This document shows, piece after piece, positions 11,345 to 62,558 of a DNA stretch of 64,000 nucleotides. Both the position numbers and the translations under genes were made by a program. This stretch comes from an uncultured Candidatus Berkelbacteria bacterium. GTDB taxonomy: Bacteria; Patescibacteriota; UBA1384; UBA12157. The stretch covers positions 17,956 to 81,955 of the forward strand of contig CAIRFN010000005.1 of NCBI GenBank assembly GCA_903877885.1, given 5' to 3'. The notes beneath the pieces are model-generated. The model searched no databases. It saw nothing but the letters and a program-made list of their open reading frames with translations, and was not told the DNA's origin. Position 1 is the stretch's first letter. Each line of letters starts with the position of its first letter.

Positions 11345-11372
11345 AAAATAGTATCTGGTGTACAGAGTAACA

Positions 11373-11408
11373 AAGGACAGTCCTTAAACGCGTAAAAGGA
11401 CTGTCCTT
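11373..11408. repeat. REP-like palindromic element (aaggacagtcctt arms), copy 1
   Basis: aaggacagtcctt-aaacgcgtaa-aaggactgtcctt followed by tttt. Located between the convergent genes lepB and 11469..12995. Confidence 0.8.
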
Positions 11409-11468
11409 TTAAATTATAGATCGCCACGGTCTGCTGACCTCGCGATGACAATTTTTTTAGATCTATCT

Positions 11469-12995: not shown

Positions 12996-13145
12996 TGATT
13001 CCCCTCCGCTCATCCATGACCTATGGATATTATGTAGTTGAGCGCCCTCCGAATCTACACTGTCAGTAGAGGACGAAGCCCCTTTGACAGTAAAGATGTA
13101 GGATGGGCTATTTACCATTATAACAAAATTTCTAACTTTAAGCGA

Positions 13146-14177
13146 TTAACTCGCTAATTTAAGAACTAATAAGTCGAGGGCCACTTTTGGCTCAACCTGA
13201 CCGGTTTTCATCGCCAAATCGTTTTCCATTAATTCATGGTAGATTTTTTTCAGTTCTATCATATTGTAATTCTTAATTAAATTTAGGCTTTTACCGGCCA
13301 CAAACGGATGCAATCCAGCCCGTTTCGACAGCTCCCACTGCGAATTTACTCCGCGCTCGGCAAAATCCATCGTAATTAACAGGTTCCGATATTGATAAAC
13401 AATCATCGACAAAATATAGAGTTCATTTTCGCCATTATCTAAAAGTCGGTGTAATTCGTATAATGATTTTTTGACGTTTCGACTAGCGACCGCGTCAACC
13501 AGAGCAAAAATATCGCTGGAAGTTTGCGGTTTAACCAAGAGTTCGATATTTTGAACTGTAATAATATTGTCATCCTCGAGCCGGTGTGAGTCTTTATCGA
13601 ACACCGACATCGGGGATCCAGATCCCGGATCCTGAAGCCTTCCGGTCCGGGATGACAGACCTTTAAAAGTTGCAAGTTTGGCAATTTCATTTCCTAACCG
13701 CCACAAATCGGCGCCAACATATTCAAATAATTTTTGAACACCATCAGATGTAATCGTACCATTTAATTTAGCAACTTCTTCGCGAATCCAGGTTTTTGCA
13801 CCTTGTTCATCAAGCGGTTTAAATTCTTGGGTTTTTTGTTTAGCTAATTTTTTGTAAAGCGATGTCCGTTTATCTGGCACGCCTGCTTCAGCAAAAACCA
13901 AAACGGTTGTTTCCGGGACTTTCGGCAAAAATTCGCCGATTTTTTCTTGTTCATCCTTTTTTCCTTCTAACAACAAATTTTCAATAATCACCAGCCGACT
14001 TTTGGCTAAAAATGGATAGGCCAAAATCTGCCGAATCATAAAATCGGCTTTAGTCGTCTTGCCGTCAATCACCGCTAAATTTGTGTCCCCTAAAGACGCG
14101 GAAATATACTTTTCCTTCATCTCTTTAATTTTTTGTTTTAGTCTGTAAGTATCCTCGCCAAAAAGAAATAATATCAT
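13146..14177 (-). CDS. holA: DNA polymerase III delta subunit-like (HolA)
   Basis: 343 aa. N-terminus MILFLFGEDTYRLKQKIKEMKEKY and overall delta-subunit layout. It carries an in-frame family-A element at 13568-13657. Confidence 0.65.
   Translation of the reverse strand: MILFLFGEDTYRLKQKIKEMKEKYISASLGDTNLAVIDGKTTKADFMIRQILAYPFLAKSRLVIIENLLLEGKKDEQEKIGEFLPKVPETTVLVFAEAGVPDKRTSLYKKLAKQKTQEFKPLDEQGAKTWIREEVAKLNGTITSDGVQKLFEYVGADLWRLGNEIAKLATFKGLSSRTGRLQDPGSGSPMSVFDKDSHRLEDDNIITVQNIELLVKPQTSSDIFALVDAVASRNVKKSLYELHRLLDNGENELYILSMIVYQYRNLLITMDFAERGVNSQWELSKRAGLHPFVAGKSLNLIKNYNMIELKKIYHELMENDLAMKTGQVEPKVALDLLVLKLAS
13568..13657. repeat. Family-A MITE-like palindromic element (tgtcatcctcgag...gggatgaca) inserted in frame in holA
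   Basis: Termini tgtcatcctcgagccgg.. and ..ccggtccgggatgaca. Translated through as ..RLQDPGSGSPMSVFDKDSHRLEDDN.. Confidence 0.8.
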
Positions 14178-15637: not shown

Positions 15638-15691
15638 CCAACACGCGGTGGCCTCCACCGCTTTTTAAATTCTGGCAATCTTCTAACAAAT

Positions 15692-15727
15692 AAGGACAGT
15701 CCTTCAGCGCGTTAAAGGACTGTCCTT
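15692..15727. repeat. REP-like palindromic element, copy 2
   Basis: aaggacagtcctt-cagcgcgtta-aaggactgtcctt followed by ttt. Located just after the fabH-like gene. Confidence 0.8.
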
Positions 15728-15735
15728 TTATTCTT

Positions 15736-15826
15736 TGTCATCCTCGAGCCGGAGGGTACTCCGACATCAAGGATCCAGAAAATTCCTGGATCCCAGATCC
15801 TGAAGCCTTCCAATCTGGGATGACAT
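15736..15826. repeat. Family-A MITE-like element, intergenic copy
   Basis: tgtcatcctcgagccggagggtactccgacatcaaggatccag + aaaattc + ctggatcccagatcctgaagccttccaatctgggatgaca. Confidence 0.8.
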
Positions 15827-15831
15827 AAAAA

Positions 15832-16803
15832 TTAAAACAAGCTCAACCGATTATCTTCCCTATTAGATTTATGAATTCTGGGAATTAAGGATTTAAACCC
15901 GAGGTCTAAAAAGAGTTTTTCCACTTTTTCCTTATCAAAATCGTGAATTTTGGCATCTGATAATTTAAACTCGATCGGCGCATCTGAAACAATTTGTGAC
16001 AATTTTTGGCTTAAATATGCTTGATCTTTGTACTCAATTAATAAGGAAAGAACTTTTTTGGAAATTTTTAACTTTTCTGATAGTTTTTGAATTTTGTCAT
16101 CCTGAGCTTGCGAAGGAACTTTTTTAGATTCTTCACTACCGTTCAGAATGACATTATATAAATTATCAAGTGTTTGAAATTTCTCGATTAGATTGCTGGC
16201 CGTTTTTTCACCTATTCCTGGAACTCCGGGAATATTGTCCGAAGAGTCGCCTTTGAGCGCCTTTAGGTCAACAAATTGACTTGGATTAACATTATACCGC
16301 TCTTTGACTTTATTCTCATCGTACATGACCGCTTGCTGGACACCGCGCGCCATCGAATAAACCTTTGTACTCTGATCAATCAGCTGAAAAGTATCCGAGT
16401 CACCTGTCACAATAATGTTTTCAATTCCACTATCTTCTATCCCCTTTATTATCGTTGCGGCAATATCTTCGCCTTCATATCCTTCGGCCGAAACAATCGG
16501 AATATTCATGGTCTCCAACACTTTTTTGCAATATTGAATTTGCGGCACCAAATCATCAGGCATCGGTTTGCGCGTCGCTTTGTAATCAACATATTCCAAG
16601 TGCCGTTTGGTTGGTTTGGGTAAATCAAAACAAGCCACCAAGTATTCAGGTTGGAGTTCTTTAATGGCAGCAAGTAAAGCCGAGGCAAAACCATAGGCCG
16701 CGTTAATCGGATGACCATCGCGCGTCAAAGTCGGCGGAATACCATAGAATGCCCTAAAAATTAAAGCAAACGAATCAATTAAAACCAAACGATTTTTTAT
16801 CAT
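15832..16803 (-). CDS. 5'-3' exonuclease (Pol I N-terminal-type / FEN-like)
   Basis: 323 aa. N-terminus MIKNRLVLIDSFALIFRAFYGIP with the acidic metal-binding clusters typical of 5'-nuclease domains. It carries an in-frame family-B element. Confidence 0.85.
   Translation of the reverse strand: MIKNRLVLIDSFALIFRAFYGIPPTLTRDGHPINAAYGFASALLAAIKELQPEYLVACFDLPKPTKRHLEYVDYKATRKPMPDDLVPQIQYCKKVLETMNIPIVSAEGYEGEDIAATIIKGIEDSGIENIIVTGDSDTFQLIDQSTKVYSMARGVQQAVMYDENKVKERYNVNPSQFVDLKALKGDSSDNIPGVPGIGEKTASNLIEKFQTLDNLYNVILNGSEESKKVPSQAQDDKIQKLSEKLKISKKVLSLLIEYKDQAYLSQKLSQIVSDAPIEFKLSDAKIHDFDKEKVEKLFLDLGFKSLIPRIHKSNREDNRLSLF
16095..16153. repeat. Family-B palindromic element (tgtcatcctgagc...gttcagaatgaca) in frame in the 5'-exonuclease gene
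   Basis: tgtcatcctgagcttgcgaaggaacttttttagattcttcactaccgttcagaatgaca. Translated as ..PSQAQDDKIQ.. Confidence 0.8.
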
Positions 16804-16835
16804 TATGAATATACTTTAACACAGCTCTCTATACC

Positions 16836-16864
16836 TTGACAAATGGGCGATTTTATGGTACAAT
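16836..16864 (+). promoter_or_regulatory. Near-consensus promoter TTGACA, 17-bp spacer, extended TGgTACAAT
   Basis: ccttgacaaatgggcgattttatggtacaat. It drives the GC-rich lipoprotein gene. Confidence 0.55.
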
Positions 16865-17941: not shown

Positions 17942-19258
17942 CTATCCATCCATTCTCTTTAACAACGCGTCGCGAGCGATTTTGCGGTCAGACCAAGGAA
18001 TTTTCTTTTCGCCAACCACCATACATTCCTCGGCGCCTTTGCCGGTAATGAGAACTATATCATCTTTGTGAGCAATTTTAATAGCCTTTTCAATCGCCTC
18101 TTTGCGATCAAAAATCTGGAAAAAGTTCTCGTTTAAAACTTTGGGATTTTTGCTATCAGCGCCGCGAGGCACGCCGCCGGAGACTTCCTCGATAATTTTT
18201 TGAGCGTCCTCGGTATATGGATCTTCGTTCGTCACAATCACAATATCGGCAAATTTACCAGCTAAGGCGCCCAAGATTGGCCGTTTGGTTTTATCACGAT
18301 CGCCGCAAGAACCCAAAACCGAAATAATTCGAGCTTTTTTAGCCATATCCAAGGTTTGATAAACTTTCTCCAAAGCGTCTGGCGTATGAGCGTAATCAAT
18401 AATGACAGCAAAACTTTGGCCTATATCCACTTTTTCCATTCGACCTGGAACCACATCCATTTCTTCGAGTGCTTGTTTGGCCACATCCAAATGAATTTTT
18501 AAAGCATAGGCCACACAAATCGCAGCCAAAGCATTATAAATATTAAACTTGCCGGGCAAATTAGAATTAACCGCAATTTGACTGGTTGGAGTGACAATCG
18601 TAAACATTGAACCAGTTGGTTCTAGAATAATTTTTTTAGCTAAAATTTCAGGTCGAACCTGACGCGTGGTTTGAGCATTTTCAATACCGTAAGTGATAAT
18701 ATCGCGAGCTGGTAAAGCCGCAAGCTGATCAATTGTTTTTTCATCATCATTATTTAAAATATTAATCGTTTTGCCAGTCGAAAAAAGTTTGGTTTTAACC
18801 TTGCGATATTCCTCAAAAGTCTTATGATAATCCAGATGGTCGTGCGTCATATTGGTCATAATGGCAATCTGATAATTGATCCCATAAGTGCGATATTGGC
18901 TAATGGCGTGAGAAGAAGTTTCCAAAACCACCCAATGACAGCCAGCTTTAAGGCATCGACTCAAAAACTTTTGAACCGCAAATGGCGAGTCGGTGGTCAT
19001 TTTAGTCGTATTAACCCACTCTTCTTTACCAATCTTAAAATTAATCGTCGTGGCCATACCCACACGGTAATTGGCTTTTTCCAAAATTCTGGCAATCATA
19101 TTACAAGTCGTGGTTTTGCCGTTTGTACCAGTCACACCGATAATTTTGAGTTTTCGACCAGGAAAACCATAAATCATGGCCGCCAAAACGCCTCGGGCGA
19201 AATGCGTCCAAATGATAAATGATTCAGGTAAAATTGATTTAAGATAAGATTTAATCAT
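17942..19258 (-). CDS. murE: Mur ligase, MurE-like (UDP-MurNAc-L-Ala-D-Glu : diamino acid ligase) with a short N-terminal domain
   Basis: GVTGTNGKTTT P-loop, DHLDYH, GKFNIYNALAA, GRMEKV, IIDYAHTPDALEKV and ITGKGAE motifs. Confidence 0.75.
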   Translation of the reverse strand: MIKSYLKSILPESFIIWTHFARGVLAAMIYGFPGRKLKIIGVTGTNGKTTTCNMIARILEKANYRVGMATTINFKIGKEEWVNTTKMTTDSPFAVQKFLSRCLKAGCHWVVLETSSHAISQYRTYGINYQIAIMTNMTHDHLDYHKTFEEYRKVKTKLFSTGKTINILNNDDEKTIDQLAALPARDIITYGIENAQTTRQVRPEILAKKIILEPTGSMFTIVTPTSQIAVNSNLPGKFNIYNALAAICVAYALKIHLDVAKQALEEMDVVPGRMEKVDIGQSFAVIIDYAHTPDALEKVYQTLDMAKKARIISVLGSCGDRDKTKRPILGALAGKFADIVIVTNEDPYTEDAQKIIEEVSGGVPRGADSKNPKVLNENFFQIFDRKEAIEKAIKIAHKDDIVLITGKGAEECMVVGEKKIPWSDRKIARDALLKRMDG

Positions 19259-20217
19259 TTCCTTCTCATCTTCTCGATAAACTTAAATAAATTATACCAG
19301 CATTTGCTGTAAATAATATCCCAACTTCCGACTGTTTGGTATTTGATGCCGCCAAATTGCTCTTTAAATTGAGTGATACCGGCGTATTTATGTTTTTTGT
19401 CATTCTGAGCTTGCGAAGAATCTATAGATCCTTCACTGCGTTCAGGATGACTATTAAATGGCGCTACTGCTAATAAATCATAAAACTTGCAACCTTTGGC
19501 TTTGGCGATTTTAATCGCCTCCCAGTGCATTAGGTATGGTGCCATTACATTGCGATATTTTGATAAGCTTGCTCCATAAAGATAAGTCGCCATTTCGTCA
19601 AAAAAAGTAAAAATTCCAGCCGCCACGGGAATATCATTATATTTAACAACCAAAAGTTCAACGGAATTTATTTCTTTTAAGGTTTGAATTAATTTAGCAA
19701 AATATTTTTTTGGTCTGATTTGAAAACCATCTCGGCTAGCCGTTTCCTTAAAAATTTCGTAAAATTCGTCAATATTTTGTGATTTTTCAACAACTAAACC
19801 ATGTTTTTGCCCTACTTTAATATTATATCGGCCTTTTGGTTTCATTTTGGCCAAAATTTCTTCTTCAGATTTTGTTATATCCACAATTTGACGATATTCT
19901 GGCTGAATCTCTTCAAACGATTTAATGAGATGATTTTTCTTCAAAATTGTTGTAATTTTTCCACCAAAAACCGAGTTTTTTTGATTCAAAAAATCTAACC
20001 TTAAAAATATCGAGTGGGATTTTTTAGAAATTTCTTTAATTTTTGGTAAAAATTTGGGGAAATTGATTTTGTAAAAATCGACTTCCGGCGAGTACAGAAA
20101 ACTAAAACCCAGTGGTAATGGTTTTTCCAAAACTAAAACCTCATCAACCCAATGGGCTTTCCAACCTTGACTTTCGCGAAGCGCAGCCCATTCCTTTGTT
20201 TGTAGAATTGATTTCAT
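19255..20217 (-). CDS. FemAB-family peptidoglycan interpeptide aminoacyltransferase (FemX-like)
   Basis: 320 aa. N-terminus MKSILQTKEWAALRESQGW and overall Fem-family layout. It overlaps murE by 4 nt. It carries an in-frame family-B element. Confidence 0.65.
   Translation of the reverse strand: MKSILQTKEWAALRESQGWKAHWVDEVLVLEKPLPLGFSFLYSPEVDFYKINFPKFLPKIKEISKKSHSIFLRLDFLNQKNSVFGGKITTILKKNHLIKSFEEIQPEYRQIVDITKSEEEILAKMKPKGRYNIKVGQKHGLVVEKSQNIDEFYEIFKETASRDGFQIRPKKYFAKLIQTLKEINSVELLVVKYNDIPVAAGIFTFFDEMATYLYGASLSKYRNVMAPYLMHWEAIKIAKAKGCKFYDLLAVAPFNSHPERSEGSIDSSQAQNDKKHKYAGITQFKEQFGGIKYQTVGSWDIIYSKCWYNLFKFIEKMRRK
19398..19452. repeat. Family-B palindromic element in frame in the femX-like gene
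   Basis: tgtcattctgagcttgcgaagaatctatagatccttcactgcgttcaggatgac. Translated as ..HPERSEGSIDSSQAQND.. Confidence 0.8.
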
Positions 20218-20246: not shown

Positions 20247-21482
20247 ATGATGAAAGAAAAAATGAAAATATTAGCCATTGAATCAAGTTGTGACGAAACC
20301 GCGGCCGCCGTTATTGAAAATAATAACGGTGAGATTAAGATACATTCAAACATAATTTCTAGTCAAATTGATATTCACAAACAATTTGGTGGCGTTTTTC
20401 CCGAAATTGCTTCGCGTGCTCATGCCGAAAATATTATTCCGGTGATTAAAGAATCTTTAATTAATAGTATTGATGATGTCGATCTAATCGCTGTCACTGA
20501 CGGACCAGGTTTAATCGGTTCGCTTTTGGTTGGCGTCAATGTAGCCAAAACCTTGAGTTTCGCAAATAATATTCCGATCTTACCAATCAACCACTGGCTT
20601 GGTCATATCTATTCCTGTTTTACCGATGATAAAAATTTACCTCGATTCCCTCTTCTCGCCCTTATTGTTTCCGGTGGTCATACTGGTTTGGTGTTGATGA
20701 AAAGTCATACCGAGTACATTCAAATCGGCGCTACACTTGATGACGCCGCTGGCGAAGCTTTTGATAAAGTAGCAAAACTCTTAGAATTAGGTTATCCTGG
20801 CGGACCGGCGATTTCAGCTGCGGCTGAAGAATATAAAAAAGAATGTCATTCCGGTCCAGATGGTAATACTGGAACCGGAATCCAGGCCTGGATTCCCGAT
20901 GTCGAGTTGCCACTCGGCTCGAGAATGACAATTTCCTTTCCGAGAGCCATGCTTAATTCTAAAGATTATAATTTAATGTCAATTAAATTTCCGCGGGCCA
21001 TGATGCAATCAGGGAACTATAATTTCTCATTTTCAGGGTTAAAAACTTCTGTACTAAACAAAGTTCGAACTTTAACTGAAAATTGGAAATTGAGAACTGA
21101 AAATTTTGCCCCCGTAGTTGCCTATGAATTTCAACAATGCGTCATTGATATTTTAATTGGTAAAACTTTGAAAGCGGCTGAAGAATTTAAGCCAAAATCA
21201 ATTCTTCTTTGCGGCGGCGTTTCAGCAAATAAGGAATTAAGAGAACAAATGAAAAAAGCTATTTTGTCATTCCGGACCCCTCCTGTCATTCCGGACCGGT
21301 TGGCAACAGGATCCGGAATCCAGGAAAAAACGAATGACAAGATTAATTTTTTCTGTCCGCCCATCGAATTAACCGGCGATAACGCGGCCATGATCGGTAT
21401 TGCCGCAGCCTATCAAATCAACGCTGGCGTTAAACCAACTACATATAATAATGTAAATGCGAACTCAAATTTGAAATTGTAA
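20247..21482 (+). CDS. tsaD: tRNA N6-adenosine threonylcarbamoyltransferase TsaD (Kae1/Gcp family)
   Basis: (M)KILAIESSCDETAAAVIEN.. N-terminus with the His metal site. At 411 aa it is longer than typical, because of two in-frame element insertions plus a 17-codon tandem duplication. An alternative start exists at the ATG at 20262. Confidence 0.9.
   Translation: MMKEKMKILAIESSCDETAAAVIENNNGEIKIHSNIISSQIDIHKQFGGVFPEIASRAHAENIIPVIKESLINSIDDVDLIAVTDGPGLIGSLLVGVNVAKTLSFANNIPILPINHWLGHIYSCFTDDKNLPRFPLLALIVSGGHTGLVLMKSHTEYIQIGATLDDAAGEAFDKVAKLLELGYPGGPAISAAAEEYKKECHSGPDGNTGTGIQAWIPDVELPLGSRMTISFPRAMLNSKDYNLMSIKFPRAMMQSGNYNFSFSGLKTSVLNKVRTLTENWKLRTENFAPVVAYEFQQCVIDILIGKTLKAAEEFKPKSILLCGGVSANKELREQMKKAILSFRTPPVIPDRLATGSGIQEKTNDKINFFCPPIELTGDNAAMIGIAAAYQINAGVKPTTYNNVNANSNLKL
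20844..20930. repeat. Family-A MITE-like element in frame in tsaD (copy 1)
   Basis: tgtcattccggtccagatggtaatactggaaccggaatccag gc ctggattcccgatgtcgagttgccactcggctcgagaatgaca. Translated as ..CHSGPDGNTGTGIQAWIPDVELPLGSRMT.. Confidence 0.8.
21263..21340. repeat. Family-A MITE-like element in frame in tsaD (copy 2, with a duplicated left terminus)
   Basis: ttgtcattccggacccctcc tgtcattccggaccggttggcaacaggatccggaatccag gaaaaaacgaatgacaa. Translated as ..ILSFRTPPVIPDRLATGSGIQEKTNDK.. Confidence 0.75.
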
Positions 21483-21888: not shown

Positions 21889-24039
21889 ATGCAAGAATTA
21901 CCATCAAATTACAATTATAAAGAAACTGAAGACAAAATTTATGCGCTGTGGGAAGAAGCCGGCGCGTTTAAACCAGTTATTGATCCTAATCAAAAACCAT
22001 ATACGATTGTGATTCCGCCACCAAATGTGACTGGTTCTCTTCATATGGGTCATGCTTTAAATAACACAATTCAAGATATTTTAATTCGTCGCTCTCGGAT
22101 GCGTGGCGTGCCAACTCTATGGATTCCCGGAACTGATCATGCCGGTATTGCTACTCAAAATGTGGTGGAAAAAAAGTTGGCTAAAGAAGGCAAAACTCGT
22201 CAAGAACTTGGGCGCGAAGAGTTCACCAAAGAAGTTTGGGATTGGGTTGATCAATATGGCAACACTATTATTGGACAGCTCAAGAAAATGGGTTGTTCTT
22301 GCGATTGGTCCAGACAGCGTTTTACCATGGATGAAGGCTATTCAGAAGCGGTTAAAGTCGCGTTCAAAAATTACTATGATAAGGGTTATATTTATCAAGG
22401 TGAACGAGTGATCAACTGGTGTACCCGTTGTCAAACTGCCTTATCTGATATCGAAGTCGAACATATTGATCAAAACGCTAAACTATATTTTTTTAAATAT
22501 GATAAAAATTTTCCGATCACCATTGCCACTACGCGACCAGAGACAAAGCTTGGCGATACAGGTGTAGCGGTCAATCCGAAAGACAAAAGATATCAGGATT
22601 ACATTGGTAAAACTTTCAAGGTTAATTTTTGCGGTGTCGACCGCGAGATTCGGGTTTTTGCTGACATTAGTATTGATATAACCTTTGGCACTGGCGCCGT
22701 CGGAGTCACTCCAGCGCATTCTTTGGTTGACTATGAAATGGCCGAAAAAAATGGCTTGGATATTATTAAAGTGATTGATCAATATGGGAAAATGACCAAA
22801 GAAGCGGGAACAGAATTTGAAGGTTTGAAAGCAACTGAAGCGCAAGCCAAAGTCATCGAAATGTTGGAAAAAGCTGGGCTGATGGAAAAAGTGGAAGAAA
22901 TCCAAAACGCGATCAGTGTGTGTTATCGCTGTAATCGACCGATTGAGCCTCAACCGTCAAAACAATGGTTTTTAAAGATGTCGGAATTAGCAAAACCAGC
23001 GATTGAAGCGGTTAAATCTGGTCAAATTAAATTCACACCAGACCGTTGGACCAAAGTTTATTTAGACTGGATGGAAAATTTGCGCGACTGGTGCATTTCT
23101 CGCCAAATCTGGTGGGGGCACACCATTCCAATTGAAGGCGAAACTGATGTTTTGGACACTTGGTTTTCGTCAGCCTTGTGGCCGTTTGCCACACTTGGTT
23201 GGCCCAATAAAACTGAAGACCTAAAATATTTTTATCCGACCACCACACTTTCCACTGCCCGCGATATTATTTATCTGTGGGTGGCACGAATGATTTTTTC
23301 AGGGCTTGAATTTACCAACGAAATTCCATTTTCACAGGTTTATATTCATCCAACGGTTTTCAATAAAGAAGGTAAACGCATGTCCAAATCTTTGGGCACC
23401 GGCGTCGATCCTTTGGAACTGATCGAGAAATACGGTGCCGATGCCACGCGATTTGGTCTTACCTATATTAATACCGGGATTCAAGATTTGAAATTTGACG
23501 AAGAAGCTATTGGTGCTGGCAAAAAATTTGCCAATAAGTTGTGGAATATCACCAGATTCATGTTGATGAGCATTTGTCATTCCGGTCCGGATGGCTCCGG
23601 AACCGGAATCCAGGAAAATGATAATCTGGATTCCAGATCAGGTTGCCAACCAGTCTGGAATGACAAGATGGAACCAAGAACTGAAGCCGATAAAATCATT
23701 CTTGAAAAACTTAATGCCGTTATTAAATCAACTGACAAAAATCTTGATGAATTTAAATTTGGCCAAGCGGCGCATGATTTGTATGATTTCGTCTGGCACG
23801 ATTTGGCCGACGTATATATAGAAGAAAGCAAAGTGACCGCGAACGGTCATCCCGAGCCGAAGTCCGGCGAGGGAACCCCTGATTTTTCAGTATTACTTTA
23901 TGTAATAGTAACTTCGATTAAACTTTTGCACCCGATTATGCCGTTTGTAACAGAAGAAATCTGGCAAAAACTCTACGAAGATAAATTAGTTGATGAAAGA
24001 ATGCTGATTACGGCAAAATGGCCAAAAGCACAAGAATAG
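21889..24039 (+). CDS. valS: Valyl-tRNA synthetase (compact form)
   Basis: PPPNVTGSLHMGHAL HIGH region, KMSKS (GKRMSKSLG) and anticodon-binding region. Carries an in-frame family-A element at 23575-23665. Confidence 0.9.
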   Translation: MQELPSNYNYKETEDKIYALWEEAGAFKPVIDPNQKPYTIVIPPPNVTGSLHMGHALNNTIQDILIRRSRMRGVPTLWIPGTDHAGIATQNVVEKKLAKEGKTRQELGREEFTKEVWDWVDQYGNTIIGQLKKMGCSCDWSRQRFTMDEGYSEAVKVAFKNYYDKGYIYQGERVINWCTRCQTALSDIEVEHIDQNAKLYFFKYDKNFPITIATTRPETKLGDTGVAVNPKDKRYQDYIGKTFKVNFCGVDREIRVFADISIDITFGTGAVGVTPAHSLVDYEMAEKNGLDIIKVIDQYGKMTKEAGTEFEGLKATEAQAKVIEMLEKAGLMEKVEEIQNAISVCYRCNRPIEPQPSKQWFLKMSELAKPAIEAVKSGQIKFTPDRWTKVYLDWMENLRDWCISRQIWWGHTIPIEGETDVLDTWFSSALWPFATLGWPNKTEDLKYFYPTTTLSTARDIIYLWVARMIFSGLEFTNEIPFSQVYIHPTVFNKEGKRMSKSLGTGVDPLELIEKYGADATRFGLTYINTGIQDLKFDEEAIGAGKKFANKLWNITRFMLMSICHSGPDGSGTGIQENDNLDSRSGCQPVWNDKMEPRTEADKIILEKLNAVIKSTDKNLDEFKFGQAAHDLYDFVWHDLADVYIEESKVTANGHPEPKSGEGTPDFSVLLYVIVTSIKLLHPIMPFVTEEIWQKLYEDKLVDERMLITAKWPKAQE
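23575..23665. repeat. Family-A MITE-like element in frame in valS
   Basis: tgtcattccggtccggatggctccggaaccggaatccag...ctggattccagatcaggttgccaaccagtctggaatgaca. Translated as ..CHSGPDGSGTGIQENDNLDSRSGCQPVWNDK.. Confidence 0.8.
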
Positions 24040-24074: not shown

Positions 24075-24451
24075 TGTCATTCCAGACCGGCCGGAGGCAG
24101 GATCTGGAATCCAGAATAAAATGAATAATTATTATGTGTATATTTTGACTAGCAGAAGAAACGGCACTTTATATATTGGCGTAACTAATGATCTGATTAA
24201 AAGAATATGGGAACATAAAAACCATAGTAAAAAAGGATTTACAGAAAAATATAACATTTGCCAATTGATATACTTTGAGCAAACTAATAATATAAACTCC
24301 GCTATTAATAGAGAAAAACAATTAAAATCATGGAATAGAAAATGGAAACTTGACTTAATTGAGAAAGTCAATCCTGATTGGAAAGATTTATATCAAGAAT
24401 TGTTGTAACTGGATTCCCGATGTCGGATGCCATCCGACTCGAGAATGACAA
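24075..24451 (+). mobile_element. Full-length family-A element carrying a GIY-YIG nuclease ORF between its two terminal modules
   Basis: Left module tgtcattccagaccggccggaggcaggatctggaatccag (24075-24114). ORF 24121-24408. Right module ctggattcccgatgtcggatgccatccgactcgagaatgaca (24410-24451). The short MITE copies (e.g. 38811-38904) are these two modules joined directly. Confidence 0.75.
24121..24408 (+). CDS. GIY-YIG nuclease family protein (UPF0213/YhbQ-like, about 95 aa)
   Basis: ..YYVYILTSRRNGTLYIGVTNDLIKRIWEHKN.. with the GIY...YIG motifs. The start is trimmed to the ATG at 24121. The track frame is open from 24061 through the left terminal module. Confidence 0.85.
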   Translation: MNNYYVYILTSRRNGTLYIGVTNDLIKRIWEHKNHSKKGFTEKYNICQLIYFEQTNNINSAINREKQLKSWNRKWKLDLIEKVNPDWKDLYQELL

Positions 24452-31046: not shown

Positions 31047-31086
31047 AATCAACTGGATTTGACAGATTATTCCCCCTTGACAACAG

Positions 31087-31115
31087 GGGAGTTTTGTGGT
31101 ATATTTATATGTTCT
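31087..31115 (+). promoter_or_regulatory. Near-consensus promoter TTGACA, 17-bp spacer, extended TGgTATATT
   Basis: ccttgacaacaggggagttttgtggtatatt. It sits within a weak cccc/gggg hairpin and drives the GC-rich gene at 31279. A second TTGACA lies at 31069. Confidence 0.5.
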
Positions 31116-34311: not shown

Positions 34312-34350
34312 TTGCCTCCTTACTTTACCTTTCTAGCATAGATTAACCTC

Positions 34351-34379
34351 TTGACAAATGTCAAATTATATGGTATATT
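34351..34379 (+). promoter_or_regulatory. Near-consensus promoter whose -35 lies in the palindrome TTGACAAATGTCAA. 17-bp spacer, extended TGgTATATT
   Basis: cctcttgacaaatgtcaaattatatggtatatt. It shares the CTCTTGACAAAT(A)GTCAA motif with the promoter at 36780. Confidence 0.55.
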
Positions 34380-36763: not shown

Positions 36764-36833
36764 TGTCAAGAGAAAGCTCTTGACAAATAGTCAACAATGT
36801 AGTATAGTTGGTTGTTATCTTCCGGAAGATAAC
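36764..36833 (+). promoter_or_regulatory. Promoter plus operator complex: a TGTCAAGA-n6-TCTTGACA palindrome overlapping the -35, TTGACA, 17-bp spacer, TATAGT, then a perfect 20-bp palindrome gttatcttccggaagataac
   Basis: tgtcaagagaaagctcttgacaaatagtcaacaatgtagtatagt... The palindrome at 36814-36833 sits at about +5 to +25. Confidence 0.55.
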
Positions 36834-37741: not shown

Positions 37742-37752
37742 ATACAGACCAA

Positions 37753-37788
37753 AAGGACAGTCCTTCAGCGCGTTAAAGGACTGTCCTT
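37753..37788. repeat. REP-like palindromic element, copy 3
   Basis: aaggacagtcctt-cagcgcgtta-aaggactgtcctt tt. It is followed by a ttgataccagatacc motif. Confidence 0.8.
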
Positions 37789-37839
37789 TTGGATAATCTG
37801 ACACTTGATACCAGATACCAAATGCTATATACTTGACCC

Positions 37840-38921: not shown

Positions 38922-40070
38922 TTATTTATTAACTTCTTTCTTCAGTTCTTCCACTTTATCCGTTCTCTCCCAAGGTAAATCTAATTCTGGTCTACCGAAA
39001 TGGCCATAGGCGGCAATTTTTTGGTAGATTGGTTTTCGAAGATCTAAGGCTTGGATAATCATCCCTGGTCGTAAATCAAAAACTTTACTCACCGCTTGAG
39101 CGATTTTATCGTCTTCAATGGTGCCAGTACCAAACGTATCAATTCGCACCGACATTGGTTCAGCTCGACCGATGGCATAAGCAATCTGCACTTCACAGCG
39201 TTCGGCTAATTTTGCGGCAACGATATTCTTGGCCACCCATCTGGCCGCATAGCTACCCGACCGATCAACTTTACTCGGATCTTTTCCAGAGAAACAACCG
39301 CCACCGTGACGCGCATAGCCACCATAAGTATCAACAATAATTTTGCGGCCGGTCAGTCCAGTATCACCTTGCGGCCCACCAATCACAAACCGACCGGTGG
39401 TGTTGACATAGTAGTTTGTATTTTGAAGCAAGGATTTAGGGATAACTTTTTCAATTACTTTCTCGATAATTTCTTTTTTTAAGATCGATGTTTTAATATT
39501 TTCATCATGTTGTGCCGCAATTAAAACCGATTCGATGCGGACTGGTTTGTCGCCATCATATTCAACTGTAACCTGGCTTTTGCCGTCTGGTCGCAAGCCT
39601 TTGACAATCCCCTTTTTTCGAACTTCAGCCAAGCGTTGGCAAAGTTTGTGAGCCAAAACAATTGGCAAAGGCATTAATTCTTTGGTTTCGCGACAAGCAT
39701 AACCAAACATCAAACCTTGATCACCGGCGCCTAGATTTTCCAAGTCTTCGACCAAAGGACAGTCCTTTTGTTCCTTTAAGGACTGTCCTTTACTAAACGC
39801 ATCAACACCCTGTGCAATATCGGCTGATTGTTCCTTAACCGCCACCATTACACCGGAAGTTTCCCAGTGAAAACCATATTCGGCATTTGTATAGCCAATT
39901 TGTTTAATGACGTTGCGAGCGATTTTCGGAATATCGACATATGTTTTAGTGGTAATTTCTCCAGCGATAATACAAACGCCGTTGGTCAGCAATGTTTCGC
40001 AAGCGACTCGTCCTTGCGGATCGTCAGTTAAAATTGCATCGAGTACCGCATCACTAATCTGATCAGCCAT
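38922..40070 (-). CDS. metK: S-adenosylmethionine synthetase
   Basis: [35 protein letters not shown] and the rest of the canonical MetK sequence. Carries an in-frame REP-like insertion at 39765-39800 (..[17 protein letters not shown]..). Confidence 0.95.
39765..39800. repeat. REP-like palindromic element inserted in frame inside metK
   Basis: aaggacagtcctt-ttgttccttt-aaggactgtcctt. It adds about 12-16 residues relative to the conserved MetK loop before GAGDQG. Confidence 0.8.
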
Positions 40071-40183: not shown

Positions 40184-40277
40184 TGTCATTCCAGACCGGA
40201 TGGCATCAGGATCTGGAATCCAGAGTTAATTATTTCTGGATTCTTGATGTCGGAGTACCCTCCGGCTCGAGAATGAC
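40184..40277. repeat. Family-A MITE-like element in the metK 5' leader, between the riboswitch terminator and the start codon
   Basis: tgtcattccagaccggatggcatcaggatctggaatccag...ctggattcttgatgtcggagtaccctccggctcgagaatgaca. Confidence 0.8.
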
Positions 40278-40292
40278 ATAAAAAAACAAAAA

Positions 40293-40412
40293 TCACCGCA
40301 AGCGGTGAAATATATAAAAACATCTTTCCCGCAAGGGGTCGGAGGTAGCACCTAAATTAATGGGTTGCTGGTGGATCATCGGGCCGAATCCCTCACCACA
40401 CTCTTGATATTA
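40293..40412 (-). ncRNA. SAM-I (S-box) riboswitch with an intrinsic terminator, upstream of metK
   Basis: Minus-strand read: AUCAAGAGUGUGGUGAGGGAUUCGGCCCGAUGAUCCACCAGCAACC...GGUGCUACCUCCGAC. This matches the conserved SAM-I core AGAGnGGnGGAGGGAnnGGCCCGAUGAnnCCnnGCAACC...GGUGCUA. It is followed by a terminator tcaccgcttgcggtga plus a T-run at 40280-40308. Confidence 0.8.
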
Positions 40413-40528
40413 AAATTAATTTTTAACTAAATTTATCATATTATAACCATCTAACTTTTGTCAAACTCTTGCCTGGAAACAATTTTTGCTTTAAGATGTA
40501 AATATTAAATTTATATTTTAGGAGCAAA

Positions 40529-43614: not shown

Positions 43615-45129
43615 ATGAGTAATTACAACATTGTTGAAGAACTAAAAAAAGAGATTATGGATTTTGACACTAACGCCAAAGAAGAATCTGCTGGCGAAGT
43701 AGCCGAAATCGGTGACGGTATTGCTAAAATTTACGGCCTTCGTGATGCCAAAAACGGCGAACTTCTAACCATTCATACTTCCACCTCCGAGGTGGCCGCA
43801 ATGGTTTTAAACCTTGAAGAAACCACTATCGGCGCCATTATTTTGGGCGATTACAAAAAAATTCAAGCTGGTGATAAAGTCAGTACCACCGGAAATGTGG
43901 CTGAAATTCCTGTTTCCGAGGAAATTATCGGTCGTGTCGTTGATCCACTCGGCGTTCCACTTGATGGCAAGGCTGATATCAAAGCTGTTAAATCAATGCC
44001 AATCGAAAAAGTCGCGCCTGGCGTTATTACTCGACTGGGCGTTTCTGTGCCGCTTCAAACCGGTATTAAAGCAATTGATGCTCTGATTCCGATTGGTCGC
44101 GGTCAACGCGAACTCATTATTGGCGATCGCGGCACAGGGAAAACCGCCATCGCCATTGATACTATTATTAACCAAAAAAATCTGCCAAAAGAAAACAGAC
44201 CGATTTGTATTTATGTGGCTATTGGTCAAAAGAAATCCAAAGTTGCCCGCATCGCCGCGATTTTGGAAGAACACGGCGCCATGGAATACACCACCATTGT
44301 TTTGGCCGGCGCTTCAGATCCAGCGCCGCTATCTTACATTGCCCCATATTCTGGTTGCGCTATTGGCGAATATTTTATGGAACAAGGCAAAGATGTTTTG
44401 ATTGTTTTTGATGATTTAACCAAGCACGCTTGGGCTTATCGCCAAGTTTCTTTGTTACTTCGCCGCCCACCAGGTCGCGAAGCTTATCCAGGCGATGTTT
44501 TCTATCTCCACTCTCGATTATTGGAACGCTCTGCTCGTTTAAACAAAGATTTTGGCGGCGGCTCAATGACAGCTTTACCAATCATCGAAACCCAAGCGGG
44601 CGATGTTTCCGCTTATATTCCAACCAATGTTATTTCCATTACCGACGGCCAGATTTTCTTGGAATCCGATCTTTTTTACCAAGGTATTCGACCAGCTTTA
44701 AACATCGGTATATCGGTATCACGTGTCGGCGGCGCCGCTCAAATTAAAGCGATGAAAAAAGTCGCGGGAAAATTAAAATTGGAAATGGCTCAATATCGTG
44801 AACTGGCAGCTTTCGCTCAATTTGCATCAGATTTGGATGCCGATACCAAAAAAACCATTGAGCGTGGCAAACGCATGACCGAGGTGATGAAACAGCCACA
44901 ATATCAACCAATGCCAGTCGAAGAACAAGTGGTGATTTTGTACGCGGTTTCCAACGGTTATTTGGATGGTTATGATGTTACTGAAATTCAAGATATTGCC
45001 AAGGAATTGACCATCAAAGCCCAAAGCGAGGGCAAAGCCATTTTAGCCGAAATCCGCGAAAAATCAGTTATTGACGAAGCCTTAGAAGCCAAACTAAAAT
45101 CGTTTTTAGAAAAAAATACGAAAAAATAA
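43615..45129 (+). CDS. atpA: F0F1 ATP synthase subunit alpha
   Basis: GDRGTGKT Walker A plus the complete conserved alpha-subunit sequence. Confidence 0.95.
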
Positions 45130-45136
45130 TTTTAAA

Positions 45137-45527
45137 TGTCATCCTCGAGCCGGTTTGAGCTTTGTCGAAAACCGACATCAAGGATCCATCAAAATAAAAA
45201 GCTATTTCGTTTACATTTTAGCCAGTCAGAAAAACGGAACATTATATATCGGTGTTACAAATGATATTATAAGAAGGATTTGGGAGCACAAAAATAAAGC
45301 TATTCAAGGTTTTACAGATAAATATAGAATTGATAAATTAGTTTATTTCGAAGAAACACCAGATATTAATTCAGCTATTAAGAGAGAAAAACAATTAAAA
45401 TTATGGAGCCGTTCCTGGAAAATAGATTTGATAGAAAAGAATAATCCTGATTGGAAAGATTTATATCAAGATTTGTTATAATGGATCCTTGATGTTGGAG
45501 CGCTTCGCTTCCAACTCGAGGATGACA
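45137..45527 (+). mobile_element. Second full-length family-A element carrying a GIY-YIG ORF between its terminal modules, inserted between atpA and atpG
   Basis: Left module tgtcatcctcgagccggtttgagctttgtcgaaaaccgacatcaaggatcca. ORF to 45481. Right module tggatccttgatgttggagcgcttcgcttccaactcgaggatgaca. Confidence 0.75.
45155..45481 (+). CDS. GIY-YIG nuclease family protein (second copy)
   Basis: ..YFVYILASQKNGTLYIGVTNDIIRRIWEHKN..REKQLKLWSRSWK.. The frame is open from a TTG inside the left terminal module. There is no ATG near the conserved N-terminus, so the start is uncertain. Confidence 0.75.
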   Translation: MSFVENRHQGSIKIKSYFVYILASQKNGTLYIGVTNDIIRRIWEHKNKAIQGFTDKYRIDKLVYFEETPDINSAIKREKQLKLWSRSWKIDLIEKNNPDWKDLYQDLL

Positions 45528-46025: not shown

Positions 46026-47066
46026 ATGCCAAGTACACAAGAATTTCGTAGAAGAATTAAATCGGTCAGTTCGACCAAACAGATTACCAAAGCAATGGAA
46101 ATGATTGCTTCTATTAAGATGCAAAAATCTGTCAAAACTATTGCCCAGGCTCGAGCCTATATCCAAAACGCATGGAATATTTTACATTTACTGTCTGAAA
46201 AAATATTAAGCGACGATCACGCGCTGATTAATCCTAAAGATCATGCCAAAAAAACAGCCGTGATTTTAATTACTTCTGACCGCGGTTTATGCGGTTCATA
46301 TAATTCAGAAGTGATCAAGAAGCTAACATCATTCAAAAATGTCATCCTCGAGACGGAGGGTACTCCGACATCAAGGATCCAGGACCTGGATTCCAGATCT
46401 GGTTCCCAACCAGTCTGGAATGACAATACGATTGATATCATTGCCATCGGTAAAGTCGGCGCCGCGTTTGTTAACAGATATAAAATCGGCAAACTGATCG
46501 CTGAATTTAAAGGTTTTGAAAATAATATTTCCGTTGAAGATGTCATTCCGATTTCCAAACTGACGAATGGTGAATATATGGCTGGAAATTATGACAAAGT
46601 GGTAGTGATTTATTCTCATTTCATTTCTTCGCTTAAACAAGTCCCGGTCGTCAAACAAATTTTGCCAATTGTCGAAGATCATATCGATCATCCGGAATTA
46701 TGGGAAGGAAATAATGTCATCCTCGAGCCGGAGGGTACTCCGACATCAAGGATCCAGGACCTGGATTCCCGATCCGGAGGCCATCCGGTCGAGAATGACA
46801 AAAACAATACTGAATACAAATTTGAACCCAATCCTGATGAAGTTTTTGATGGCGTCTTGCGACAAATTTTACGCACCCAAATTTTCGGTGCCATTTTAGA
46901 AGCCAACGCTTCTGAACATTCGGCCCGTATGGTGGCCATGAAAAATGCCACCGACAATGCCACCGATTTAGTTGATGAATTAAAATTAGTATATAACAGC
47001 ATCCGCCAAGGAAACATCACTTCGGAAATCGCCGAAATTAGTGGTGCCGCCGAGGCGATGAAATAA
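46026..47066 (+). CDS. atpG: F0F1 ATP synthase subunit gamma (lengthened by two in-frame MITE insertions)
   Basis: Conserved N-terminus (..RRRIKSVSSTKQITKAMEMIASIKMQK..) and C-terminus (..NSIRQGNITSEIAEISGAAEAM). At 346 aa it is longer than typical. Confidence 0.9.
   Translation: MPSTQEFRRRIKSVSSTKQITKAMEMIASIKMQKSVKTIAQARAYIQNAWNILHLLSEKILSDDHALINPKDHAKKTAVILITSDRGLCGSYNSEVIKKLTSFKNVILETEGTPTSRIQDLDSRSGSQPVWNDNTIDIIAIGKVGAAFVNRYKIGKLIAEFKGFENNISVEDVIPISKLTNGEYMAGNYDKVVVIYSHFISSLKQVPVVKQILPIVEDHIDHPELWEGNNVILEPEGTPTSRIQDLDSRSGGHPVENDKNNTEYKFEPNPDEVFDGVLRQILRTQIFGAILEANASEHSARMVAMKNATDNATDLVDELKLVYNSIRQGNITSEIAEISGAAEAMK
46340..46425. repeat. Family-A MITE-like element in frame in atpG (copy 1)
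   Basis: tgtcatcctcgagacggagggtactccgacatcaaggatccag gac ctggattccagatctggttcccaaccagtctggaatgaca. Translated as ..VILETEGTPTSRIQDLDSRSGSQPVWND.. Confidence 0.8.
46715..46800. repeat. Family-A MITE-like element in frame in atpG (copy 2)
   Basis: tgtcatcctcgagccggagggtactccgacatcaaggatccag gac ctggattcccgatccggaggccatccggtcgagaatgaca. Translated as ..VILEPEGTPTSRIQDLDSRSGGHPVEND.. Confidence 0.8.
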
Positions 47067-49124: not shown

Positions 49125-49170
49125 TGTCATCCTGAGCGTAGCGAAGGATCTATCATAACGCGTCGCAAGC
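49125..49170. repeat. Family-B element, degenerate or truncated copy
   Basis: tgtcatcctgagcgtagcgaaggatctatcataacgcgtcgcaagc. Left terminus is intact; the right terminus is missing. Confidence 0.55.
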
Positions 49171-50335: not shown

Positions 50336-50401
50336 TAATAATTTATTTTATTGGCAGACAATTTGAGTTGTGATACAATGAAAACAGTATTTGGTATTTC
50401 A

Positions 50402-50516
50402 GCCCATCCTTCATCTTTACTGTGCAACCGACTCCGTCGTGTACGCACAGTGCAGATTGCGGAGGGCGACATCCTATCATATTTTTTAAATAAATGAGTG
50501 TCGGAGGGGTATAGTG
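50402..50516 (+). promoter_or_regulatory. Conserved ~115-nt 5' leader element, copy A, upstream of the T4SS-like operon
   Basis: About 80% identical to the reverse complement of 62448-62558. Both end in gtgtcggagggg, which is the SD, plus a start codon. It contains the cggagggcgaca / tgtcggagggg complementarity. Confidence 0.5.
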
Positions 50517-61437: not shown

Positions 61438-61460
61438 AAAGTAGACGGTATCCGACAATA

Positions 61461-61495
61461 AAGGACTGTCCTTCAACGCGCTAAAGGACAGTCCT
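61461..61495. repeat. REP-like palindromic element, copy 5
   Basis: aaggactgtcctt-caacgcgcta-aaggacagtcctt tttt. Followed by atacttgatactaaatcctaaatactagatac. Confidence 0.8.
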
Positions 61496-61540
61496 TTTTA
61501 AATACTTGATACTAAATCCTAAATACTAGATACTAATTTT

Positions 61541-61813: not shown

Positions 61814-61823
61814 CTTTACCTAA

Positions 61824-61859
61824 AAGGACAGTCCTTCAGCGCGTTAAAGGACTGTCCTT
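61824..61859. repeat. REP-like palindromic element, copy 6
   Basis: aaggacagtcctt-cagcgcgtta-aaggactgtcctt t. Located between convergent genes. Confidence 0.8.
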
Positions 61860-61877
61860 TATTGTTTGTGATTTTTC

Positions 61878-62447: not shown

Positions 62448-62558
62448 CTTCCCCTCCGACACACATTAATTTAAAAATATGATAGTTTGTCGCCCTCCGA
62501 TACTCGCACTGTTCGTACACTACGAAGTAGGTTGAACAGTAAGAGTTTAGGATGGGCA
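62448..62558 (-). promoter_or_regulatory. Conserved ~115-nt 5' leader element, copy B
   Basis: The reverse complement aligns with 50402-50516 over gcccatcct...ttactgtNcaaccNactNcgtNgtgtacgNacagtgc...cggagggcgaca..ctatcatattttt..gtgtcggagggg. Confidence 0.5.

Follow-up and report, generated by a model that had tools for sequence, protein, structure and literature searches.

A palindromic double-hairpin repeat, probably Ssn-associated, read in frame within holA of a Candidatus Berkelbacteria bacterium

Two described systems of short palindromic repeats come closest to the element considered here, a 90-nt insert within holA, the gene for the delta subunit of DNA polymerase III, of an uncultured Candidatus Berkelbacteria bacterium (assembly GCA_903877885.1, contig CAIRFN010000005.1, positions 17,956 to 81,955). 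The whole 64,000-nt stretch that was analyzed is called the window, and coordinates refer to it. The first system centers on SsnA, a 94-aa GIY-YIG enzyme of Neisseria that binds a hairpin repeat, the NTS (CGTCATTCCCGCGMAVGCGGGAATCYRG), only as single-stranded DNA (ssDNA) and cuts a few nucleotides upstream of it (Chenal et al., Nat Commun 2025, PMC11893778). The GTC head of the NTS and the C after its palindrome are critical, the NTS-ssnA-NTS gene layout is reminiscent of an insertion sequence (IS), and SsnA/NTS modulates transformation in N. meningitidis, where only 2% of NTS lie inside genes; in Rickettsia, more than 300 Ssn-related motifs (SRMs) have been reported (PMC11893778). The second system consists of the Rickettsia palindromic elements (RPEs), which PMC10969869, drawing on Ogata et al. 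(2000, 2002), describes as palindromic repeats that lie in frame in unrelated housekeeping genes and are translated. Our results suggest that the 90 nt in holA are most probably a selfish or neutral, non-autonomous hairpin pair, Ssn-associated and resembling a miniature inverted-repeat transposable element (MITE), which was inserted secondarily in the linker between domains II and III of the delta subunit and has been tolerated there.

The insert occupies positions 13568-13657 and spans 30 codons, with the inverted termini TGTCATCC and GGATGACA at its two ends. An earlier note, made from the letters alone, had described a two-module element here that is read through on the minus strand of a delta-like holA gene; its extent and the module consensus at both termini were confirmed to the nucleotide, and the gene assignment stood as well. 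The features of the locus are as follows.

13146-14177, minus strand: holA (DNA polymerase III delta subunit), 343 aa, matched by Pfam and TIGR01128
13568-13657, unstranded: two-module palindromic element; its minus-strand frame corresponds to HolA residues 174-204, approximately
13568-13621, plus strand: module B, a long-loop variant, TGTCATCC-TCGAGCCGGTGT...ACACCGACATCGG-GGATCCAG
13618-13657, minus strand: module A, TGTCATCC-CGGACCGGAAGGCTTCAGGATCCGG-GATCTGG, with all 13 consensus hairpin pairs intact

Read on the plus strand, the element starts with TGTCATCCTCGAGCCGG and ends with GGTCCGGGATGACA (full sequence, TGTCATCCTCGAGCCGGTGTGAGTCTTTATCGAACACCGACATCGGGGATCCAGATCCCGGATCCTGAAGCCTTCCGGTCCGGGATGACA). 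Modules B and A stand head-to-head and abut, overlapping by 4 nt with no spacer. Within the gene the element covers nt 521-610, starting at the second position of codon 174 and ending at the first of codon 204, and the minus-strand translation across it runs ...KLATFKG-LSSRTGRLQDPGSGSPMSVFDKDSHRLEDD-NIITV.... Its GC content is 0.56 as against 0.40 for the whole window. The insert is real and fixed in the sampled population: 13 contigs carry an identical HolA protein, and among these three independent assemblies, compared at the nucleotide level, showed 0 nt differences across holA with its insert and flanks.

The earlier note had assigned the segment to a repeat family (its Family-A), and this family proved to be dispersed across the window. 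The module TGTCATYC-N20-46-GRATCYAG has 22 matches in the 64 kb, whereas dinucleotide-preserving shuffles give an expectation of 0.01. Two-module copies of 86-95 nt occupy nine loci, among which one is the closest relative of the holA element.

15736-15825, unstranded: closest paralogous two-module copy, intergenic, 90 nt, 79% identity, 2.1 kb from the holA element

This copy has the same B-then-A order on the plus strand as the holA element. Apart from the holA copy, the window has the long-loop B module at one place, just upstream of the GIY-YIG gene (45155-45481); this module, at 45137-45189, is its nearest relative in the window. About 7 of the 16 element loci in the window are genic. Copies lie in holA and valS and, at two sites each, in tsaD and atpG. 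The genic copies are free of stops in the frame used, and their spacers are GC-rich and short or missing altogether; in the intergenic copies the spacers are AT-rich, span 7-12 nt and carry stops in most frames, and three of the four copies have a length that is not a multiple of three. The other genic copies are read in differing frames and orientations (CHSGPDG..., VIPDRLA..., VILETEG..., SSRTGRL...), and selection for a particular peptide is therefore disfavored. Beyond the window, the B-type module occurred in 44 metagenomic contigs, with about 8 of 45 copies inside long open frames, some of which give the same GSPMS...RLEDD reading. One copy (L105, 3892-3933 of metagenome contig Ga0172374_1004624) is in the frame used in holA, ..QDRESGSPMSDSVRLEDDMKN.., and sits in the middle of an open frame of about 500 aa in another organism.

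Folding and covariation indicate that the conserved entity is the DNA palindrome and not the amino acid sequence. As a single strand the holA element folds at -41.6 kcal/mol as RNA (z, -3.1) and -19.5 kcal/mol as DNA (z, -2.8). An alignment of 15 type-A modules has 97.4% of its cells in standard pairs, with changes on both sides in 6 of the 13 pairs (25 cells); the covariation score was equaled by 0 of 500 shuffles, and pairing fell to 7-55% in controls in which the alignment was slid. The arms of the holA element and of the copy in holA of a related lineage (protein P0002, locus L003) differ by compensatory changes, ATCCCGGA/TCCGGGAT vs ATTCCAGA/TCTGGAAT, and the encoded peptides have diverged (SSRTGRLQDPGSG vs SFQTGRRQDLESS).

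Two copies of the module family bracket each of two small GIY-YIG genes in the window, an arrangement that links the repeat to Ssn nucleases.

24075-24450, plus strand: first SRM-ssn-SRM unit (module A, GIY-YIG open reading frame, inverted module B)
24075-24114, plus strand: module A of the first unit
24121-24408: open reading frame of the first unit, starting with ATG at 24121, 95 aa
24409-24450, minus strand: module B of the first unit
45137-45527, plus strand: second SRM-ssn-SRM unit (long-loop module B, GIY-YIG open reading frame, inverted module)
45137-45189, plus strand: module B of the second unit
45155 or 45200 to 45481: open reading frame of the second unit
45481-45527, minus strand: inverted module of the second unit

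Both reading frames match PF01541, with E values of 1.8e-14 (24121-24408) and 1.9e-16 (45155/45200-45481). The start codon of the second is uncertain, as the frame has no ATG and the one start found upstream, a TTG, falls within the module. The first unit is a candidate source of a trans-acting ssDNA nuclease that would recognize the module family. Homologues of the window's GIY-YIG proteins, at 55-73% identity, come from many phyla. At 80 such loci, TGTCATY lay no more than 150 nt upstream in 30, RATGACA downstream in 32 and both in 23, against a chance expectation of about 2%; the Neisseria NTS consensus (at most two mismatches) was found at 25 of the 80 and the published SRM pattern, on one side or both, at 51. 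The catalytic residues, compared by eye, are spaced alike (Y7/Y18/E65 in the window, Y6/Y17/E64 in N. meningitidis SsnA). When a solved Ssn structure was sought, only a distant UPF0213 entry, 1ZG2, was matched; WD40 structures that ranked above it were rejected as spurious, being sums over repeats. The second unit, together with two more modules (45550 and 45618), lies in the ATP synthase operon between atpA, which ends at 45129, and atpG, which starts at 46026.

In sequence architecture and gene association, the holA element is closest to the NTS/SRM-Ssn system, as judged from sequence. Both holA modules and 22 modules in the window follow TGTC-AT(T/C)CC...GG(A/G)AT-C-(C/T)AG, except that the A module in holA ends in TGG. 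This arrangement parallels the GTC, the ATTCC...GGAAT palindrome and the C-YRG of the NTS (CGTCATTCCCGCGMAVGCGGGAATCYRG there, TGTCATTCCAGACCGG...CAGGATCTGGAATCCAG in the window), a group of repeats that includes the dRS3/NIME repeats of Neisseria. The systems also share many dispersed copies and a single-domain GIY-YIG gene of about 95 aa between inverted copies. They differ in that the window hairpins are 12-25 nt longer, the copies are mostly inverted pairs (two-module, MITE-like), and about half of the element loci are genic and read in frame, as opposed to 2% in N. meningitidis. Furthermore, the host is a patescibacterium.

In behavior, by analogy, the element is closest to the RPEs. Both are short palindromic repeats that lie in frame in unrelated housekeeping genes at fold-tolerant sites, with no obvious transposase and no target-site duplication. 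The window element differs in length (90 nt vs about 100-150 nt), in host phylum and in that the window holds a candidate partner gene, ssn, that shares its termini. No sequence relationship with RPEs was detected: a scan of five insert peptides against NCBIfam for RPE-domain models, at E values up to 10, returned no family. A relationship between RPEs and SRMs is possible, in view of the remark that Rickettsia carries more than 300 SRMs.

Other repeat systems resemble the element in fewer respects. The REP/BIME-RAYT systems likewise combine hairpins recognized as ssDNA with a small nuclease gene between inverted copies of its own repeat, and leave no target-site duplication. Their nuclease, however, is of the HUH/Y1 type (IS200/IS605-like Y1) and not GIY-YIG (PF01541), REPs are essentially extragenic, and the window element has no conserved GTAG-type head. 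We rejected identity with REP/RAYT systems (REPtrons), since the module-flanked genes are PF01541 and not Y1_Tnp. Classical MITEs such as Correia, ERIC and Nezha are similar in being shorter than 100 nt, with terminal inverted repeats and many copies, and in lying now and then inside genes as in-frame fusions. Unlike them, the window element has neither a target-site duplication nor an IS-type transposase sharing its termini; the ssn units do have the same termini as the two-module elements, and a GIY-YIG nuclease is no established transposase. Our literature searches for in-frame palindromic elements in the candidate phyla radiation/Patescibacteria found no description.

The gene that carries the insert is, by its domain content, a genuine delta subunit. 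It matches DNA_pol3_delta (PF06144, 1.3e-15), DNA_pol3_delta_C (PF21694, 2.9e-27) and TIGR01128 (225 bits against a cut-off of 80, with the match split into two stretches), and the profile built from its orthologues finds B. subtilis delta (PDB 3ZH9_B, E 7e-44). In an AlphaFold2 model computed with the orthologue alignment (mean confidence score, pLDDT, 84.9), pLDDT falls below 50 only at residues 178-188 and 190-201, inside the insert; the three domains and the helices on either side (158-171 and 208-214) are confident, with averages of 85-94 per ten-residue block in the flanking domains. The insert falls in the linker that joins the last domain II helix (H158-171) to the beginning of domain III, and its site aligns to the short linker KLCTF-IGDRE-EIT of B. 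subtilis delta 3ZH9. The 30 residues, rich in Ser, Gly, Asp, Arg and Pro, are predicted to form a disordered loop, which is presumably exposed to solvent and harmless; the insert would be neutral for delta function.

We infer that the insert is translated and not removed. Two other fates would be that the segment is taken out before the protein acts, in the manner of an intron or intein, or that holA is a decaying pseudogene. Compact folding closed by the element's own termini is what removal might call for, but 90 nt are too few for an intein or a group I or II intron, and a gathering scan of the whole window with Rfam, complemented by a permissive scan of 13400-13800, gave no match on the element. 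Nor was a terminator-like site found at the element when one was looked for. As for decay, the reading frame is intact and all delta motifs are conserved. Both fates are highly improbable. A search for a promoter made by the element gave one weak overlapping match (9/12, minus strand), and the match count did not exceed the shuffle background.

Comparison with orthologues indicates that the insertion is the derived state. The closest HolA relatives belong to Candidatus Berkelbacteria/Patescibacteria, and the closest orthologues with an empty site (P0003, P0004, P0005 and P0007), which are 312-313 aa long and 68-74% identical (71-74% when counted over shared columns), have KLTTY-NSE/NQK/NPK-IT here and no insert. 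In P0007, from Berkelbacteria (locus L001, GCA_964547745.1), the same FabH-like/holA/DUF2207 neighborhood is present and the element is absent from the DNA. Among the 120 closest homologues, 91 have a basal linker of 6 residues and about 26 an expanded one. Conservation of the insert peptide in delta subunits of unrelated taxa, on which the earlier note would have had its reading rejected, was not seen: the peptide is missing from the four empty-site orthologues, from the 91 homologues with the basal linker and from 3ZH9. A homologous insert occurs in a single related lineage, P0002, whose gene has, at the position and in the orientation of the window copy, a canonical two-module element of 84 nt (AAAGGAG, then TGTCATTCCAGACCGG...GGAATCCAG-TT-CTGGATCC...GAGGATGACA, then G).

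The same comparison bears on two more ways of accounting for the segment, namely, an error of assembly or an ancestral linker that was lost elsewhere. Assemblers can be misled by repeats, and the insert is common to the window and one relative. Nevertheless, the insert is not an assembly artefact, because the identical gene was recovered in three independent assemblies, from different assemblers and different samples. Insert-free linkers, moreover, are uniformly 6 residues long, and the segment belongs to a dispersed family with copies in unrelated loci, which speaks against either account. Together they have a probability close to negligible.

The linker has certainly been hit independently in other, more distant Patescibacteria. 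In P0052 (locus L087) and P0108 (locus L088), the Tyr codon is followed at once by TGTCAT...ATGACA elements from other subfamilies, and P0076 and P0059 also have elements of this kind in the linker. The filling in P0052 is of the TGTCATYCTGAGC subfamily. RLQTTA... inserts form a further class in this linker. A second insertion hotspot of HolA lies in the N-terminal domain after EGKK, where Lys/Ala/Gly/Ser-rich segments (e.g., SASPKAGETSPKGGET) were read from orthologues P0006, P0010, P0013, P0019, P0030, P0089, P0100 and P0106 (alignment columns 105-160). The inserts at this hotspot and the RLQTTA... class probably represent other repeat families.

It could be argued that the loop is an adaptation of the protein, in that delta would gain a new interaction surface, for example, or more length in the hinge that links the clamp-opening domains to the collar. 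All sampled populations carry the identical insert as a fixed feature, and the same linker is enlarged in about 26 of the 120 closest homologues, as an adaptation might be. Yet the insert is predicted to be disordered, most orthologues do with a 6-residue linker, the inserts of different lineages are unrelated in sequence and use different frames, and the peptides of the window and of P0002 have diverged at positions where the palindrome in the DNA is intact. We therefore regard a protein-level adaptation as very unlikely.

A related argument places the benefit at the level of DNA, with the hairpins in essential genes (holA, atpG, tsaD and valS) kept for a function there. Specifically, Ssn would cut incoming homologous ssDNA that bears the hairpins and thereby limit allelic replacement or regulate recombination in natural transformation, as shown for NTS-flanked genes in Neisseria. 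The effect of SsnA/NTS on transformation in N. meningitidis would fit such a role (PMC11893778), as would the compensatory changes that keep the hairpin even in coding DNA and the copies in several essential genes of one 64-kb window. On the other hand, only 2% of Neisseria NTS are genic, the closest orthologues lack the insert and many copies are intergenic. Upkeep of the palindrome is also equally expected if the element must stay a nuclease substrate in order to spread. On balance, a DNA-level function seems unlikely.

With the insert read as a tolerated, Ssn-associated hairpin pair, the following sequence of events can be proposed. A double-hairpin derivative of the termini of an SRM-ssn-SRM unit would have landed in the permissive holA linker and passed a selection filter on length, frame and position. 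It would persist because its length is a multiple of three, because there is no stop in the frame used and because it adds only a hydrophilic, disordered surface loop; the peptide would be a by-product of the DNA palindrome. The modules may be spread by Ssn proteins or by host repair of ssDNA after Ssn has nicked just outside the TGTCAT termini. Each strand of the two-module element bears a forward module at its 5' end, so that nicks by Ssn would fall on opposite strands, each just beyond one terminus, a geometry that is suggestive. A bolder version, which we consider doubtful, holds that the SRM-ssn-SRM units are themselves mobile, that Ssn mobilizes the double hairpins in trans without a DDE or HUH enzyme, and that in streamlined Patescibacteria the derivatives routinely colonize and remodel loops of essential proteins, with the holA linker as a recurrent target.

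Several results weigh against a spreading, Ssn-associated element. Direct repeats flanking the nine two-module copies were looked for and no target-site duplication was found, nor did these copies share a common target sequence. The published SRM pattern, HGTCWYN(0-2)YYVSBRHN(0-5)WNVSBRGN(0-2)RNCYNB, has 0 matches in the window; it fails on the window modules because their stems and loops are longer, and with the loop limit relaxed to 0-30 nt it has one match, the A module in holA. In neighbor-joining trees of the protein, the window and P0002 were sisters in 19 of 300 bootstraps, and P0002 grouped with the empty-site orthologue P0005 in 182 of 300. The filled sites could stem from two hits at one nucleotide or from a single old insertion with later losses or recombination. 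Finally, we know of no GIY-YIG nuclease that acts as a transposase or carries out strand transfer, and to our knowledge transposition of NTS/SRM repeats has not been demonstrated.

The locus bears on the biological role of Ssn beyond Neisseria, on the origin of the hundreds of Ssn repeats and on the spread of in-frame palindromic insertions like the RPEs, whose agent is not known to have been identified. Here, one small genome unites a long-stem repeat of the Ssn type, candidate ssn genes bracketed by the same repeat and several in-frame copies in essential genes. The locus makes it possible to test whether Ssn acts on or mobilizes such repeats, and how far they reshape proteins in reduced genomes. 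There are also practical implications: gene callers and profile hidden Markov models split or under-score proteins of this kind, as TIGR01128 does with holA, and the published SRM pattern misses the long-stem variant.

Further in-frame copies were observed in other genes of the window. The first of these genes carries two.

20247-21482, plus strand: TsaD-like gene, PF00814 at 3e-81 with the match split in two

Its copies are a two-module one at 20844-20930, read ..ECHSGPDGNTGTGIQAWIPDVELPLGSRMTI.., and a 1.5-module one at 21265-21339, read ..SFRTPPVIPDRLATGSGIQEKTNDK... A class I aminoacyl-tRNA synthetase of the Val/Ile/Leu type (21889-24039, plus strand) has a two-module copy at 23575-23665, read ..CHSGPDGSGTGIQENDNLDSRSGCQPVWNDK.., just ahead of its anticodon-binding domain. 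The gene for the ATP synthase gamma subunit (46026-47066, plus strand) has two copies. The one at 46340-46425 stands where relatives have a conserved Cys-rich loop (ExCxC...C..C). The one at 46715-46800 is missing from the closest orthologue, P0242 (82% identity), and present at the same site in P0243; in P0247 and P0255 this second site is filled by other SRM-type inserts (VIPAQAGILDPRVKPEDD). A second module subfamily, TGTCATYCTGAGC..GCGAAGRATC, is found near 19398, at 16095-16153 and at 49125, and one copy is read in frame, as ..HPERSEGSIDSSQAQNDK.., in a FemAB-like gene (19255-20217, minus strand).

Other repeats and signals lie close to some of these elements. A separate family, AAAGGACAGTCCTT-N8-10-AAGGACTGTCCTTT, forms double palindromes at gene ends, which look like shared bidirectional terminators; one copy directly abuts the element at 15736. 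The copies of this family are located as follows.

11372-11417: AAAGGACAGTCCTT/AAGGACTGTCCTTT double palindrome
15691-15736: AAAGGACAGTCCTT/AAGGACTGTCCTTT double palindrome
37752-37797: AAAGGACAGTCCTT/AAGGACTGTCCTTT double palindrome
39754-39799: AAAGGACAGTCCTT/AAGGACTGTCCTTT double palindrome
61460-61505: AAAGGACAGTCCTT/AAGGACTGTCCTTT double palindrome
61823-61868: AAAGGACAGTCCTT/AAGGACTGTCCTTT double palindrome

A third family, partly palindromic, 58-92 nt long and with about 79% identity, has copies at 13052-13109, 50401-50493 and 62466-62557, the first of which adjoins the downstream end of holA, within the DUF2207 leader. The family does not represent a tRNA; a check for a tRNA origin of the repeats found no tRNA genes in the window. 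An S-adenosylmethionine (SAM) riboswitch (RF00162, 57.6 bits; 40317-40413, minus strand), the sole Rfam match, adjoins the intergenic two-module copy at 40184-40278. Lastly, a promoter-like box, CTTGACAA-N..-TGGTATA(T/A)T, with an extended -10, stands upstream of several genes.

16835-16860: promoter-like box
31076-31101: promoter-like box
34350-34375: promoter-like box
36769-36818: promoter-like box

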